A DNA stretch of 64,000 nt from Heptranchias perlo. Its lineage: Eukaryota. The notes beneath the pieces were generated by a model that worked only from the letters and a program-made list of their open reading frames with translations, was not told the DNA's origin and did no database searches. A program made the position numbers and the translations under genes. This document shows positions 49,073-60,109 of the stretch, piece by piece. Position 1 is the first letter of the stretch. Every line of letters begins with the position of its first letter. The DNA lies in assembly GCF_035084215.1 (NCBI RefSeq), contig NC_090345.1, positions 2,294,001 through 2,358,000 of the forward strand, written 5' to 3'.

Positions 49073-49198
49073 GAAATTAGCGGGACAAGTCCTGCAACTG
49101 TCGCTGTCTCCAACTTCACCTTCGATCAGAAGGCTGTCTTTGTGATCCACGGATATTTGGAAAATGGAGATGCCAGCTGGGTTATGGATCTGTGCAAG
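49073..49198 (+). CDS. Lipase coding exon 3 (EISGTSPATVAVSNFTFDQKAVFVIHGYLENGDASWVMDLCK)
   Basis: tttag acceptor, AAG|GTATGG donor, 126 nt; IHG(Y) oxyanion-loop motif. Confidence 0.92.
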
Positions 49199-52100
49199 GT
49201 ATGGACTGTGTATCTGTGCAGGGTATGGACTGTGTATCTGTGCAGGGTATGGACTGTGTATCTGTGCAGGGTACGGACTGTGTATCTGTGCAGGGTACGG
49301 ACTGTGTATCTGTGCAGGGTACGGGCTGTGTATCTGTGCAGGGTACGGACTGTGTATCTGTGCAGGGTACGGACTGTGTATCTGTGCAGGGTACGGGCTG
49401 TGTATCTGTGCAGGGGGTGGACTGTGTATCTGTGCAGGGTATGGACTGTGTATCTGTGCAGGGTACGGACTGTGTATCTGTGCAGGGTACGGGCTGTGTA
49501 TCTGTGCAGGGGGTGGACTGTGTATCTGTGCAGGGTATGGACTGTGTATCTGTGCAGGGTATGGACTGTGTATCTGTGCAGGGTATGGACTGTGTATCTG
49601 TGCAGGGGGTGGACTGTGTATCTGTGCAGGGTATGGACTGTGTATCTGTGCAGGGTATGGACTGTGTATCTGTGCAGGGTATGGACTGTGTATCTGTGCA
49701 GGGGGTGGGCTGTGTATCTGTGCAGGGTATGGACTGTGTATCTGTGCAGGGTCTGGGCTGTGTATCTGTGCAGGGTCTGGGCTGTGTATCTGTGCAGGAT
49801 ATGGACTGTGTATCTGTGCAGGGTATGGACTGTGTATCTGTGCAGGGTCTGGGCTGTGTATCTGTGCAGGGTATGGACTGTGTATCTGTGCAGGGTACGG
49901 GCTGTGTATCTGTGCAGGGTACGGGCTGTGTATCTGTGCAGGGTATGGACTGTGTATCTGTGCAGGGTATGGACTGTGTATCTGTGCAGGGTATGGACTG
50001 TGTATCTGTGCAGGGTATGGACTGTGTATCTGTGCAGGGTATGGACTGTGTATCTGTGCAGGGTCTGGGCTGTGTATCTGTGCAGGGTACGGACTGTGTA
50101 TCTGTGCAGGGTACGGACTGTGTATCTGTGCAGGGTACGGACTGTGTATCTGTGCAGGGTACGGACTGTGTATCTGTGCAGGGTACGGGCTGTGTATCTG
50201 TGCAGGGGGTGGACTGTGTATCTGTGCAGGGTATGGACTGTGTATCTGTGCAGGGTACGGACTGTGTATCTGTGCAGGGTACGGGCTGTGTATCTGTGCA
50301 GGGGGTGGACTGTGTATCTGTGCAGGGTATGGACTGTGTATCTGTGCAGGGTATGGACTGTGTATCTGTGCAGGGTATGGACTGTGTATCTGTGCAGGGG
50401 GTGGACTGTGTATCTGTGCAGGGTATGGACTGTGTATCTGTGCAGGGTATGGACTGTGTATCTGTGCAGGGTATGGACTGTGTATCTGTGCAGGGGGTGG
50501 GCTGTGTATCTGTGCAGGGTATGGACTGTGTATCTGTGCAGGGTCTGGGCTGTGTATCTGTGCAGGGTCTGGGCTGTGTATCTGTGCAGGATATGGACTG
50601 TGTATCTGTGCAGGGTATGGACTGTGTATCTGTGCAGGGTCTGGGCTGTGTATCTGTGCAGGGTATGGACTGTGTATCTGTGCAGGGTACGGGCTGTGTA
50701 TCTGTGCAGGGTACGGGCTGTGTATCTGTGCAGGGTATGGACTGTGTATCTGTGCAGGGTATGGACTGTGTATCTGTGCAGGGTATGGACTGTGTATCTG
50801 TGCAGGGTATGGACTGTGTATCTGTGCAGGGTATGGACTGTGTATCTGTGCAGGGTCTGGGCTGTGTATCTGTGCAGGGTACGGACTGTGTATCTGTGCA
50901 GGGTACGGACTGTGTATCTGAGCAGGGGGTGGGCTGTGTATCTGTGCAGGGTATGGACTGTGTATCTGTGCAGGGTCTGGGCTGTGTATCTGTGCAGGGT
51001 CTGGGCTGTGTATCTGTGCAGGGTCTGGGCTGTGTATCTGTGCAGGGTCTGGGCTGTGTATCTGTGCAGGGTATGGACTGTGTATCTGTGCAGGGTACGG
51101 GCTGTGTATCTGTGCAGGGTACGGGCTGTGTATCTGTGCAGGGTATGGACTGTGTATCTGTGCAGGGTATGGACTGTGTATCTGTGCAGGGTCTGGGCTG
51201 TGTATCTGTGCAGGGTACGGACTGTGTATCTGTGCAGGGTCTGGGCTGTGTATCTGTGCAGGGGGTGGGCTGTGTATCTGTGCAGGGTACGGACTGTGTA
51301 TCTGTGCAGGGTCTGGGCTGTGTATCTGTGCAGGGTACGGACTGTGTATCTGTGCAGGGTATGGACTGTGTATCTGTGCAGGGTACGGACTGTGTATCTG
51401 TGCAGGGTCTGGGCTGTGTATCTGTGCAGGGTACGGACTGTGTATCTGTGCAGGGTCTGGGCTGTGTATCTGTGCAGGGTACGGACTGTGTATCTGTGCA
51501 GGGTACAGACTGTGTATCTGTGCAGGGTCTGGGCTGTGTATCTGTGCAGGGGGTGGGCTGTGTATCTGTGCAGGGTATGGACTGTGTATCTGTGCAGGGT
51601 CTGGGCTGTGTATCTGTGCAGGGTCTGGGCTGTGTATCTGTGCAGGGTCTGGGCTGTGTATCTGTGCAGGGGGTGGGCTGTGTATCTGTGCAGGGTCTGG
51701 GCTGTGTATCTGTGCAGGGTACGGACTGTGTATCTGTGCAGGGTACGGACTGTGTATCTGTGCAGGGTCTGGGCTGTGTATCTGTGCAGGGTATGGACTG
51801 TGTATCTGTGCAGGGTCTGGGCTGTGTATCTGTGCAGGGTCTGGGCTGTGTATCTGTGCAGGGTATGGACTGTGTATCTGTGCAGGGGGTGGGCTGTGTA
51901 TCTGTGCAGGGTACGGACTGTGTATCTGTGCAGGGTCTGGGCTGTGTATCTGTGCAGGGTACGGACTGTGTATCTGTGCAGGGTCTGGGCTGTGTATCTG
52001 TGCAGGGGGTGGGCTGTGTATCTGTGCAGGGTATGGACTGTGTATCTGTGCAGGGTCTGGGCTGTGTATCTGTGCAGGGTACGGACTGTGTATCTGTGCA

Positions 52101-52593
52101 GGGTACGGACTGTGTATCTGTGCAGGGTACGGACTGTGTATCTGTGCAGGGTCTGGGCTGTGTATCTGTGCAGGGGGTGGGCTGTGTATCTGTGCAGGGT
52201 ACGGACTGTGTATCTGTGCAGGGTCTGGGCTGTGTATCTGTGCAGGGTACGGACTGTGTATCTGTGCAGGGTACGGACTGTGTATCTGTGCAGGGTACGG
52301 ACTGTGTATCTGTGCAGGGTCTGGGCTGTGTATCTGTGCAGGGTACGGACTGTGTATCTGTGCAGGGTACGGACTGTGTATCTGTGCAGGGTACGGACTG
52401 TGTATCTGTGCAGGGTATGGACTGTGTATCTGTGCAGGGTATGGACTGTGTATCTGTGCAGGGTACGGGCTGTGTATCTGTGCAGGGGGTGGGCTGTGTA
52501 TCTGTGCAGGGTACGGACTGTGTATCTGTGCAGGGTACGGACTGTGTATCTGTGCAGGGTCTGGGCTGTGTATCTGTGCAGGGTCTGGGCTGT
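49199..52593. repeat. 24-bp minisatellite (gtatggactgtgtatctgtgcagg and variants), ~140 copies, starting at the exon donor
   Basis: Direct periodicity; 8-aa periodic ORFs. Confidence 0.98.
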
Positions 52594-53586: not shown

Positions 53587-56064
53587 GGGTAAAGACTCAC
53601 TCTGGGTAAAGTCTCACTCTGGATAAAGTCTCACTCTGGGTAAAGTCTCAATCTGGATAAAGTCTCACTCTGGATAAAGTCTCACTCTGGGTAAAGTCTC
53701 ACTCTGGGTAAAGACTCACTCTGGATAAAGTCTCAATCTGGATAAAGTCTCACTCTGGATAAAGTCTCACTCTGGGTAAAGACTCACTCTGGGTAAAGAC
53801 TCACTCTGGATAAAGTCTCAATCTGGATAAAGTCTCACTCTGGGTAAAGTCTCAATCTGGATAAAGTCTCACTCTGGATAAAGTCTCAATCTGGATAAAG
53901 TCTCACTCTGGATAAAGTCTCACTCTGGGTAAAGACTCACTCTGGATAAAGTCTCAATCTGGATAAAGTCTCACTCTGGATAAAGTCTCACTCTGGGTAA
54001 AGACTCACTCTGGGTAAAGACTCACTCTGGATAAAGTCTCAATCTGGATAAAGTCTCACTCTGGATAAAGTCTCACTCTGGGTAAAGACTCACTCTGGAT
54101 AAAGTCTCACTCTGGGTAAAGACTCACTCTGGATAAAGTCTCAATCTGCATAAAGTCTCACTCTGGGTAAAGACTCACTCTGGATAAAGTCTCACTCTGG
54201 GTAAAGACTCACTCTGGGTAAAGACTCACTCTGGATAAAGTCTCACTCTGGGTAAAGACTCACTCTGGATAAAGTCTCACTCTGGATAAAGTCTCAATCT
54301 GGATAAAGTCTCACTCTGGGTAAAGACTCACTCTGGGTAAAGTCTCACTCTGGATAAAGTCTCACTCTGGGTAAAGACTCACTCTGGATAAAGTCTCACT
54401 CTGGGTAAAGTCTCACTCTGGGTAAAGACTCACTCTGGATAAAGTCTCACTCTGGATAAAGTCTCACTCTGGATAAAGTCTCACTCTGGGTAAAGACTCA
54501 CTCTGGATAAAGTCTCACTCTGGGTAAAGACTCACTCTGGATAAAGTCTCAATCTGGATAAAGTCTCACTCTGGGTAAAGACTCACTCTGGATAAAGTCT
54601 CACTCTGGGTAAAGACTCACTCTGGATAAAGTCTCAATCTGGATAAAGTCTCACTCTGGGTAAAGACTCACTCTGGATAAAGTCTCACTCTGGGTAAAGA
54701 CTCACTCTGGATAAAGTCTCACTCTGGATAAAGTCTCAATCTGGATAAAGTCTCACTCTGGGTAAAGACTCACTCTGGGTAAAGACTCACTCTGGGTAAA
54801 GTCTCACTCTGGGTAAAGACTCACTCTGGATAAAGTCTCACTCTGGGTAAAGTCTCACTCTGGGTAAAGACTCACTCTGGATAAAGTCTCACTCTGGGTA
54901 AAGACTCACTCTGGATGAAGTCTCACTCTGGGTAAAGAATCACTCTGGATAAAGTCTCAATCTGGATAAAGTCTCACTCTGGGTAAAGACTCACTCTGGG
55001 TAAAGACTGACTCTGGGTAAAGACTCACTCTGGATAAAGACTCACTCTGGATAAAGACTCACTCTGGGTAAAGACTCACTCTGGATAAAGTCTCACTCTG
55101 GATAAAGACTCACTCTGGATAAAGACTCACTCTGGGTAAAGACTCACTCTGGATAAAGTCTCACTCTGGATAAAGACTCACTCTGGGTCAAGACTCACTC
55201 TGGGTAAAGACTCACTCTGGGTAAAGACTCACTCTGGGTAAAGTCTCACTCTGGGTAAAGACTCACTCTGGATAAAGACTCACTCTGGGTAAAGACTCAC
55301 TCTGGGTCAAGACTCACTCTGGGTAAAGACTCACTCTGGATAAAGTCTCACTCTGGGTAAAGACTCACTCTGGGTAAAGACTCTCTGGGTAAAGTCTCAC
55401 TCTGGATAAAGTCTCACTCTGGGTAAAGACTCACTCTGGATAAAGACTCACTCTGGGTCAAGACTCACTCTGGGTAAAGTCTCACTCTGGGTAAAGACTC
55501 TCTGGGTAAAGTCTCACTCTGGATAAAGACTCACTCTGGATAAAGACTCACTCTGGGTCAAGACTCACTCTGGGTAAAGTCTCACTCTGGATAAAGTCTC
55601 ACTCTGGATAAAGTCTCACTCTGGATAAAGTCTCACTCTGGGTAAAGTCTCACTCTGGGTAAAGTCTCACTCTGGGTAAAGTCTCACTCTGGATAAAGTC
55701 TCACTCTGGATAAAGTCTCACTCTGGGTAAAGTCTCACTCTGGATAAAGTCTCACTCTGGGTAAAGTCTCACTCTGGGTAAATTCTCAATCTGGATAAAG
55801 ACTCACTCTGGATAAAGACTCACTCTGGGTCAAGACTCACTCTGGGTAAAGTCTCACTCTGGGTAAAGACTCACTCTGGATAAAGACTCACTCTGGGTCA
55901 AGACTCACTCTGGATAAAGTCTCACTCTGGGTAAAGACTCACTCTGGATAAAGTCTCACTCTGGATAAAGTCTCACTCTGGATAAAGTCTCACTCTGGAT
56001 AAAGTCTCACTCTGGATAAAGTCTCACTCTGGATAAAGTCTCACTCTGGGTAAAGTCTCACTCT
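53587..56064. repeat. 17-bp minisatellite (ctgg[a/g]taaag[t/a]ctcact) running into the next acceptor
   Basis: Direct periodicity. Confidence 0.98.
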
Positions 56065-56081: not shown

Positions 56082-56216
56082 GCGATTCTGCGAGTGGACA
56101 ATGTGAACTGTATTTGCGTTGACTGGAGGGGAGGGTCTCAATGTCCGTTCAGCCAGGCTGCTCAGAACATCCGTGTAGTGGGGGCAGAAATCGCATATTT
56201 CCTTGATGTTCTGGAT
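56082..56216 (+). CDS. Lipase coding exon 4 (AILRVDNVNCICVDWRGGSQCPFSQAAQNIRVVGAEIAYFLDVLD)
   Basis: VNCICVDW and NIRVVGAE motifs; 135 nt; tttgag acceptor, GTAAGT donor. Confidence 0.92.
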
Positions 56217-56224
56217 GTAAGTAA

Positions 56225-56580
56225 TAATCACTACCAATCACCCTATAGAACAGGGGGGAATAATCTAATAGAACAGGAGTAATCACCCTATAGAACAGGA
56301 GTAATCACCCTATCGAACAGGAGGGGAATAATCTGATAGAACAGGAGTAATCACCCTATAGAACAGGAGTAATCACCCCATAGAACAGGAGTAATCACCC
56401 CATAGAACAGGAGGGGAATAATCTGATAGAACAGGAGTAATCACCCTATAGAACAGGAGGGGAATAATCTGATGGAGCACGAATGATCACCTTACATAAT
56501 ACGTGTGAGAATCCTATTGAGCAGAAGTAATCACCTTATAGAATAGGGGTAATCACCCTATAGATGAGGGGTAATAACCT
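56225..56580. repeat. Degenerate ~22-bp repeat (tagaacaggagtaatcacccta)
   Basis: Direct periodicity. Confidence 0.85.
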
Positions 56581-56947
56581 CACCAAACAGGGCAATGCTC
56601 TTATTATATGTAACAATCCTTATTGATTGGGTCAAAAGACCCACATGGTTTTTGATTAGACCACCAGATAAGTCATGTACCCTGGAACTCGATTGTAAGT
56701 GGTTGGATGAGGAGATGATGGGGCATTGGCCAAATGCAATGAGCCATATGGTCCCATTAGAGACAGGCGATCTTCACCCCTCTATCTGGGCTGGATTTGA
56801 ATCCTGCTCCCAGGGTGTTCTAAAGTCACGTTAGATTGAATTGAGAGGGGATTCACACAGAGATTTGGATAGCTCTTCCCTTTGAACTACGAAATTAACT
56901 TCAGATATCTGTCGATTTACCTACCTGCTTCTCTTTTTCTGTCCCAG

Positions 56948-57056
56948 AGCAACTACAATTATACCTTGCCTGATGTGTACCTGGTGGGACATGGTCTGGG
57001 TGCACACACTGCAGGCGAAGCAGGCAGACGAAGGCCAGGCATTGCTCGCATTACTG
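56948..57056 (+). CDS. Lipase coding exon 5 ([37 protein letters not shown]); nucleophile elbow reads GHGLG
   Basis: cccag/GTGAGT boundaries, 109 nt. Confidence 0.93.
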
Positions 57057-57392
57057 GTGAGTCATTCTATCCACACACCCAGTATTAGGTCAACCTGGTG
57101 TTTGAATGGGAGTCAAAGAGAAGGCGTTTGGCCCAATGGAATCCCATATAATGGGAGTCAAAGAGAAGGGGTTTGGCCCATTCAAATACTATTCAATGGG
57201 AATTAATGGGGTAGGTTCGATCTATTGGGATACTATTCAATCATTGGGATTCTACGCAATGGGAATAAATGGGAAGGGGCTCAGTTAGCAATCTGGGATT
57301 AAACCCCCTTTCTGTGATGTCTATGAATATTCTAGTGAAGATCTCGAAAAGCAATTCACGGATAACTGACTGATGCCAGAATTGTTCCACAG

Positions 57393-57512
57393 GGCTTGAT
57401 CCCGTCGAGCCGTACTTCCAGAACACTCCAACTGAAGTCCGACTGGATCCCACTGACGCATCATTCGTTGATGTGATTCATACGGATGGCTCGTCTCACA
57501 TCCTAAGTATTG
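57393..57512 (+). CDS. Lipase coding exon 6 ([41 protein letters not shown])
   Basis: cacag/GTAAGT boundaries, 120 nt; catalytic Asp in LDP retained. Confidence 0.94.
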
Positions 57513-59989: not shown

Positions 59990-60109
59990 GATTTGGGATG
60001 TACCAGGCCTGTGGACATGTCGACTACTACCCAAACGGGGGAGAGAATATGCCAGGCTGCTCCAAGAACATCCTTTCAACCATTTTGGACATCGATGGGA
60101 TCTGGACAG
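59990..60109 (+). CDS. Lipase coding exon 7 ([40 protein letters not shown]); gene continues beyond the right edge
   Basis: cgcag/GTGGGT boundaries, 120 nt; GH.D.YPNGG..MPGC and lid DIDGIW motifs. Confidence 0.94.

Follow-up and report, generated by a model that had tools for sequence, protein, structure and literature searches.

The catalytic triad of pancreatic lipase is formed by Ser152, Asp176 and His263 (PMC8287333), and the S152G protein has served as the inactive mutant control of human PNLIP (PMC12208342). Mammalian PLRP1 is described as an inactive protein that binds colipase as the active enzyme does and lowers the activity of the latter (PMC6386725). In insects, non-catalytic neutral lipases and the yolk proteins of higher dipterans associate the PF00151 fold with a broken triad; the non-catalytic neutral lipases tend to have short lids and are thought to be kept for binding or storage (PMC7240578). 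For sharks, published activity concerns SmDL, a smooth-hound lipase whose published sequence displays GHSLG and DPAKP; this enzyme is reported to be colipase-independent, and that of a stingray colipase-dependent (PMC7094207). Finally, a comparison of fish and mammalian lipases calls the triad conserved, and the word ‘shark’ is absent from the available part of its text (PMC9386070).

The locus analysed here lies in a window of 64,000 nucleotides of the Heptranchias perlo genome, for which the original prediction was an intact pancreatic-lipase gene with Gly in place of the catalytic Ser. Verification on the window sequence confirmed the elbow VGHGLGAH, in which Gly (GGT) replaces Ser152, and the LDPVEP motif of the next exon, with Val (GTC) at position 178 (coordinates in table 1; residue numbers are those of pancreatic lipase, transferred via alignment to 1rp1 and 2ppl). 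The seven coding exons of the window are indeed in phase and bounded by usable AG/GT splice sites, and join into an open frame of 271 codons. The following exons, located by a family search of the same genome approximately 50 kb downstream, are intact, include the catalytic His and contain neither frameshift nor stop, as the reading of an intact gene demanded. The whole gene (window plus downstream G000:C24) thus comprises 12 AG/GT-bounded coding exons with an open frame of 470 codons, and the 470 residues correspond without mismatch to residues 3–472 of P0001, a database protein attributed to H. perlo by its source.

By its structure, P0001 belongs to the pancreatic lipase gene family. Its lipase domain (PF00151, 435 bits) and its C-terminal PLAT domain (PF01477, 49 bits) are both above cut-off, and the predicted model is a two-domain fold (overall pLDDT 80 and pTM 0.80; pLDDT drops under 50 in the beta-9 loop and in the lid, the shape of which is thus not predicted) with TM values of 0.85–0.89 to pancreatic lipases, the closest structure being human PLRP1. 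The expected retention of the catalytic Asp and the lid was also borne out: Asp176 is present, the conserved cysteines and the full-length, disulfide-bounded lid (23 residues) are in place, with Cys257–Cys281 aligning gap-free to 1rp1 and 2ppl, and the N-terminus displays a hydrophobic stretch over a helix of the model, by eye a putative signal peptide.

Table 1. Features of the lipase gene of Heptranchias perlo. Positions refer to the window unless a contig is named.
Feature	Position	Strand	Remark
TATA-like box	42284..42290	+	read from sequence
Possible untranslated exon 1 after the TATA-like box	GT donor at 42339	+	inferred
Coding exon 1: ATG and hydrophobic signal-peptide-like stretch	45902..45950	+	model: helix 2-17
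Coding exon 2: first Cys pair	46725..46879	+	third-position C/T difference vs C301 at 46801
Coding exon 3: beta-5 loop HGYLENG, Asp79 to Glu	49073..49198	+	
Coding exon 4	56082..56216	+	joined to 56948 in RNA contigs
Coding exon 5: nucleophile elbow VGHGLGAH	56948..57056	+	
GGT, Gly at catalytic Ser152 position	56993..56995	+	residue 173 of P0001
Coding exon 6: Asp176, Val178, Pro180, calcium-site residues, beta-9 loop	57393..57512	+	
GTC, Val at position 178	57404..57406	+	residue 198 of P0001
Coding exon 7: clade-specific Cys241, most of full-length lid	59990..60109	+	RNA contig loose ends reach in
Five downstream exons, span	G000:C24 2404022-2409120		
Downstream exon with catalytic His in CNHFRA	G000:C24 2404022-2404140		
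Further downstream exons	G000:C24 2406069-2406198; 2407270-2407381; 2408470-2408637		
Last exon	starts at G000:C24 2409051		

GGT differs from AGT by one base and every run examined comes from a single sample, two points in favour of a sequencing error, a rare allele or a decaying pseudogene, the first two of which had been envisaged from the outset. However, all covering contigs read GGT and none AGT. Contig C301, which contains the whole gene, has the same codon; it differs from C24 at two third positions over 1413 coding bases, encodes an identical protein, and presents scattered intron differences (e.g. 11/873, 6/590 and 0/336 bases). The C301 copy is probably the other allele, a recent duplicate being the alternative. 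The codon at 56993 is moreover covered by DNA (one contig of X1) and by spliced contigs of X5 and X6, all of which read Gly. The RNA contigs of X5 and X6 bridge 56216–56948 across a GT..AG intron, and contigs of X5 and X7 continue from exon 6 into exon 7, so that the transcript called for by the prediction was found in spliced form. These data (X1, X5–X7) are assembled contigs of one sample rather than raw reads, and are informative on presence and splicing but on neither level nor tissue; X5–X7 lack an RNA label in their records and were taken as RNA, which the splicing bears out. As these three runs were picked through the present gene, the absence of cover for the exons of its paralogue (clade A, below) in them says nothing on tissue. 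With Gly being, in addition, common to eight batoid species, and with 12 intact exons in which all coding differences between C24 and C301 are silent, error, private allele and pseudogene were largely ruled out, the probability left to them being very small.

Searches by exon and by P0001, combined with a cluster look-up, retrieved a set of proteins 71–83% identical to P0001 (12 cluster representatives), beyond which the next relatives reach at most 58% identity; this set is hereafter called clade B. Counting one protein per species, we compared 20 clade-B proteins with 11 of a second cartilaginous-fish group, clade A (to which SmDL belongs by its published sequence), seven mammalian PLRP1 and 89 other lipases, seven fused or short rows being left out along with 16 others (isoforms, partial sequences or sequences that could not be aligned). 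A catshark B fragment, without the elbow and with Val178, is among the rows left out. Position 152 is Gly in nine of the 20 species, namely H. perlo and all eight batoids (Narcine, Pristis, two Mobula, Hypanus, Hemitrygon, Amblyraja and Leucoraja), and Ser in the 11 other sharks as well as in 100/100 comparison lipases (clade A and other vertebrate). Gly is thus shared between species and not private to H. perlo. At position 178, clade B displays Val (19) or Ile (1) and mammalian PLRP1 Val (7/7), the 100 others having Ala (98) or Cys (2). Asp176 and His263 are present in all 20 proteins, the nine Gly forms included.

Other active-site surroundings are modified clade-wide, with 34 B-diagnostic residues on the alignment. 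In pancreatic lipase, the open conformation of the lid is stabilised by Asp79, Arg256 and Tyr267; in clade B, Asp79 is replaced by Glu (18) or Lys (2), Arg256 by Lys (18) or Met (2), and Tyr267, four residues past the catalytic His, by Val (19) or Ile (1). The beta-9 Pro is lost, and in batoids Lys occupies the Leu213-equivalent position (8/8) and His that of Phe77 (5/8). Cys133 and Cys241 are invariant in the 20 proteins, Cys241 being nearly unique to B, and Cys124 is lost in eight; from this pattern, Cys133–Cys241 is a possible new disulfide of the clade. On the other hand, the HGY of the oxyanion loop does not indicate inactivity, as Tyr is also found in 10 of the 11 clade-A enzymes.

None of the 20 clade-B proteins has a broken reading frame. 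Across 28 species pairs (eight species with both genes), identity ranges from 71 to 94% for B and from 79 to 96% for A; for the PLAT domain, the ranges are 57–92% versus 67–92%, B being lower in most pairs. Within-group identity of the N-terminal domain (batoid Gly forms, 82.5%; shark Ser forms, 83.9%; A, 83.6%; PLRP1, 83.4%) allows a rough comparison only, as these groups are unlike in age. Judged from these identities, B is under persisting constraint, a little more relaxed than A and far from decay. The proposal of a conserved pseudo-lipase is, at the level of sequence, well supported by the nine Gly orthologues out of 20, the open frame and the spliced transcript.

Further searches added little to clade B. 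A short-protein search for more fragments gave 67 matches among 73 candidates, none of clade B. Among the 150 cluster representatives listed of 8895, one further clade-B-like gene model was found (P0289, with Ser), and no B protein of chimaera or lamprey; the Callorhinchus cluster (11 members) contains clade A only, which does not imply that chimaeras are without B. Database names of clade-B proteins (‘inactive PLRP1-like’, ‘PLRP2-like’, ‘triacylglycerol lipase-like’) appear to be similarity labels, and the annotation deserves correction, as several batoid copies carry the names of active triacylglycerol lipases or PLRP2-like.

Of the known systems, mammalian PLRP1 is the best solved-structure match of B by both sequence and fold (54% identity, TM 0.87 to 2ppl). 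Both display Val178, Gln at position 132, a full lid, and Asn/Asp instead of Tyr404. However, PLRP1 retains Ser152 and has Ala180, whereas B has Gly152 in 9/20 and, at position 180, Pro in 19 proteins, the sole Ala being that of P0006. The Val178/Ala180 pair inactivates mammalian PLRP1, and Val178 alone would impair activity. The PLRP1 signature put forward for this locus holds for Val178 and fails for Ala180 (Pro in H. perlo and in 19 of the 20 orthologues); a complete triad and orthology to PNLIPRP1 are lacking as well.

Clade A resembles B in its two-domain layout, its location on the same contig and 52% identity, but has Ser152 and Ala178 in 11/11 proteins, a measured activity, and a position in the tree other than that of sister to B. 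The A gene of this genome, P0108 (G000:C24, 16.71–16.72 Mb), carries GHSLG and DPAKP and lies approximately 14 Mb from B. The P0108 model is extended at its N-terminus by a stretch that matches PF13873 (Myb/SANT-like), likely a transposon exon misjoined to the gene model. A sturgeon protein, P0019, differs from B in retaining Ser152, Ala178, Asp79 and Phe77 and, from its sequence, looks like the active ancestral state of B; an unnamed protein, P0225, is 71% identical to it. As for insects, the yolk-protein type tends to have a short lid, whereas B is a vertebrate clade with a full lid and a PLAT domain. GHGLG was also found outside B, in the insect protein P0187 and in three unnamed proteins among the 150 representatives listed (P0247, P0319 and P0218), with best named matches 32–47% identical and none in clade B; in P0247, Asn moreover stands in place of the catalytic Asp. 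Loss of Ser to Gly thus seems recurrent in the lipase family as far as these sequences go, and this kind of change was already known.

To examine the history of clade B, 59 rows, which include 18 of the 20 B species, were placed on a maximum-likelihood tree (columns 152 and 178 removed, LG+G4 alone, with an unsure root on four long, half-filled invertebrate rows). On this tree, B is one clade (support 100/100) with sturgeon P0019 as its sister (95/86), and mammalian PLRP1 nests within amniote lipases. Two other origins were rejected, namely orthology to mammalian PLRP1 (B + PLRP1 clade, p-AU 5.7e-9) and a shark-specific duplication of A (B + A clade, p-AU 1.9e-4). Since B is not mammalian PLRP1, its Val178 is convergent. 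P0019 matches 16 of the 34 B-diagnostic residues and the next best sequence four; P0019 and P0225 are likely active-type orthologues of B, and the sturgeon sister with its shared diagnostic residues suggests that B likely arose before sharks and bony fishes separated. Among the bony-vertebrate matches listed, this old paralogue was seen only as P0019 and P0225. Three features thus go beyond what the original prediction could see: Ser in the same gene of 11 other sharks, Val178 (Ile in one) throughout the clade, and a likeness to PLRP1 that is convergent.

The serine was probably lost twice, in the ray ancestor and in the H. perlo line. Indeed, there are 15 sites at which H. perlo B agrees with the other sharks, against two, one of them Gly itself, at which it agrees with batoids, and this favours two losses. 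A single gain of Gly in the shark–ray ancestor, followed by a return to Ser in galeomorph sharks and the sawshark, is improbable, even though holding the eight Gly rows of the tree together in one clade lowers the log-likelihood by 13.8 and is not rejected (p-AU 0.23), Gly needs two changes on the gene tree either way (the base of B being open), and Pro165 is common to H. perlo B and six of the eight batoids. A shark-only B clade costs just 5.3 log units and is not rejected either (p 0.20), and on the accepted species tree reversal takes three steps and independent loss two.

Regarding function, no hydroxyl is available at position 152 of the Gly forms, so that the acyl-enzyme step cannot form, and no Ser or Cys occurs elsewhere in the elbow as a replacement nucleophile. 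In comparison with an active pancreatic lipase (EC 3.1.1.3), Asp176 and His263 are retained and Ser152 in G-H-S-L-G is missing. The Gly forms very probably have no serine-lipase activity. Since B is nevertheless conserved in rays, skates and one shark, its function there cannot be ordinary serine catalysis. The B gene product would be a secreted, catalytically dead protein that binds colipase and the bile-salt/fat surface and, in the manner of mammalian PLRP1, damps the active lipase. It would have started as an old jawed-vertebrate paralogue with Ser and Ala178, as in the sturgeon copy; Val178 and other active-site changes would have arisen before the shark/ray split and impaired catalysis, and the serine would have gone afterwards, most simply in two events. 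Taken as a whole, this account of an intact, dead, decoy-like second pancreatic lipase is our best explanation, and the chances for and against it are about balanced.

With its lid and the majority of its colipase-contact residues conserved, B most likely has the role of a PLRP1-like decoy, and we would give even weight to its being, and not being, what B is kept for. Among the contacts listed in PMC7094207, Asn241, Ser244, Asp248 and Lys400 are present in 20/20 B proteins and Val247 is Leu; the Tyr404 contact is Asp, Asn or Ser in B, likewise not Tyr in A, and Asn in 7/7 PLRP1. However, these contacts are conserved in nearly all family members and do not single out the decoy. The colipase gene of this genome (L020, G000:C30 26199651–26202749) has three open exons. 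In its product, the CPCE motif is directly followed by Gly, at what we take to be the position of mammalian colipase Arg65, the contact of lipase Tyr404; if so, both partners of this contact may have been lost in H. perlo. Several observations go against the account as a whole: the 11 other sharks retain Ser, more than pure neutrality requires; across most species pairs, the PLAT domain has diverged further in B than in A; and Ala180 is absent in 19/20. In addition, SmDL is reported to have no need of colipase, so that in the smooth-hound a decoy would have nothing to compete for. In the catshark, the pancreas expresses colipase together with two transcripts that bear the labels Pnliprp1 and Pnliprp2, labels not matched to B or A by sequence (PMC4362833).

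A dead enzyme could also hold another job, and B might bind or carry lipid or bile-salt micelles in gut, liver or plasma, an enlarged serine-free pocket, the lid and the PLAT domain serving this purpose as in insect neutral lipases and yolk proteins. This is a minority reading, although the remodelling of pocket and lid is fixed throughout the clade (the 34 diagnostic residues, invariant Cys241), a feature for which a pure colipase decoy would have no obvious use; the spliced transcript comes from three runs without a tissue label, and insects provide a precedent (PMC7240578). The Lys that replaces a hydrophobic beta-9 residue in batoids speaks against a kept acyl groove. As to the stronger conservation of the N-terminal domain, PLRP1 shows the same pattern (83% versus 72% for the C-terminal one), which therefore brings no support to a carrier.

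It is less probable still that B is an active, specialised enzyme, for instance a colipase-dependent one in the Ser sharks, or that in the Gly forms a water molecule, lodged where the serine was and activated by His and Asp, hydrolyses slowly. The retention of Ser in every other shark, of His263 and Asp176 in all 20 proteins and of Pro180 in 19 is compatible with such an enzyme, and a second, colipase-dependent smooth-hound lipase has been suggested (PMC7094207). Yet inactive PLRP1 keeps His and Asp as well (7/7), every Ser form has Val or Ile178, P0006 displays the full Val/Ala pair, P0135 is without His151, and the elbow offers no Ser or Cys to take over as nucleophile. Moreover, Gly forms are conserved like Ser forms (see the N-terminal identities above), as expected were the function never Ser-dependent.

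A literature search, which most subscription journals lie outside, found no description of a shark or ray lipase that lacks the serine or has Val178, and a conserved vertebrate clade with staged loss of the serine appears to be undescribed. Clade B is a real, conserved pseudo-lipase clade of sharks and rays that likely works like PLRP1 without being PLRP1. A dead-lipase brake on fat digestion might even have evolved twice in vertebrates, B going beyond PLRP1 by its independent serine losses, a wider proposal that we hold tentatively and consider more doubtful than the decoy itself. If it is true, living species hold each stage (Ser/Ala, Ser/Val, Gly/Val, and Gly/Val with a charged acyl loop) and constitute a natural series from enzyme to pseudoenzyme, offering a direct test of what PLRP1-type proteins do. 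The function ascribed to PLRP1 has long been deduced from a protein with its triad in place, for which a hidden substrate is still conceivable. Were B to serve as a decoy for colipase, dead lipases would have come to regulate fat digestion convergently in carnivorous fishes and mammals; were it a lipid carrier, this would be a new use of the lipase fold in vertebrates.

The surroundings of the gene present some further features. A minus-strand TAF5-like gene runs from 40169 downwards (exons at 39488–40169 and about 35950–36255), with TFIID NTD2 matches in two exons, a weak LisH and a long Pro-Ala-Gly repeat N-terminus. It stands head to head with the lipase gene, approximately 2.1 kb from the TATA-like box of the latter, and a promoter region common to both could cause leaky transcription of the lipase. 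The intron after exon 7 measures approximately 50 kb on C24 versus 9.6 kb on C301, a difference that may be an allelic or assembly effect; it starts with a 30-base tandem array, and other introns contain large arrays as well (about 42900–45600, 49200–52590 and 53600–56060).
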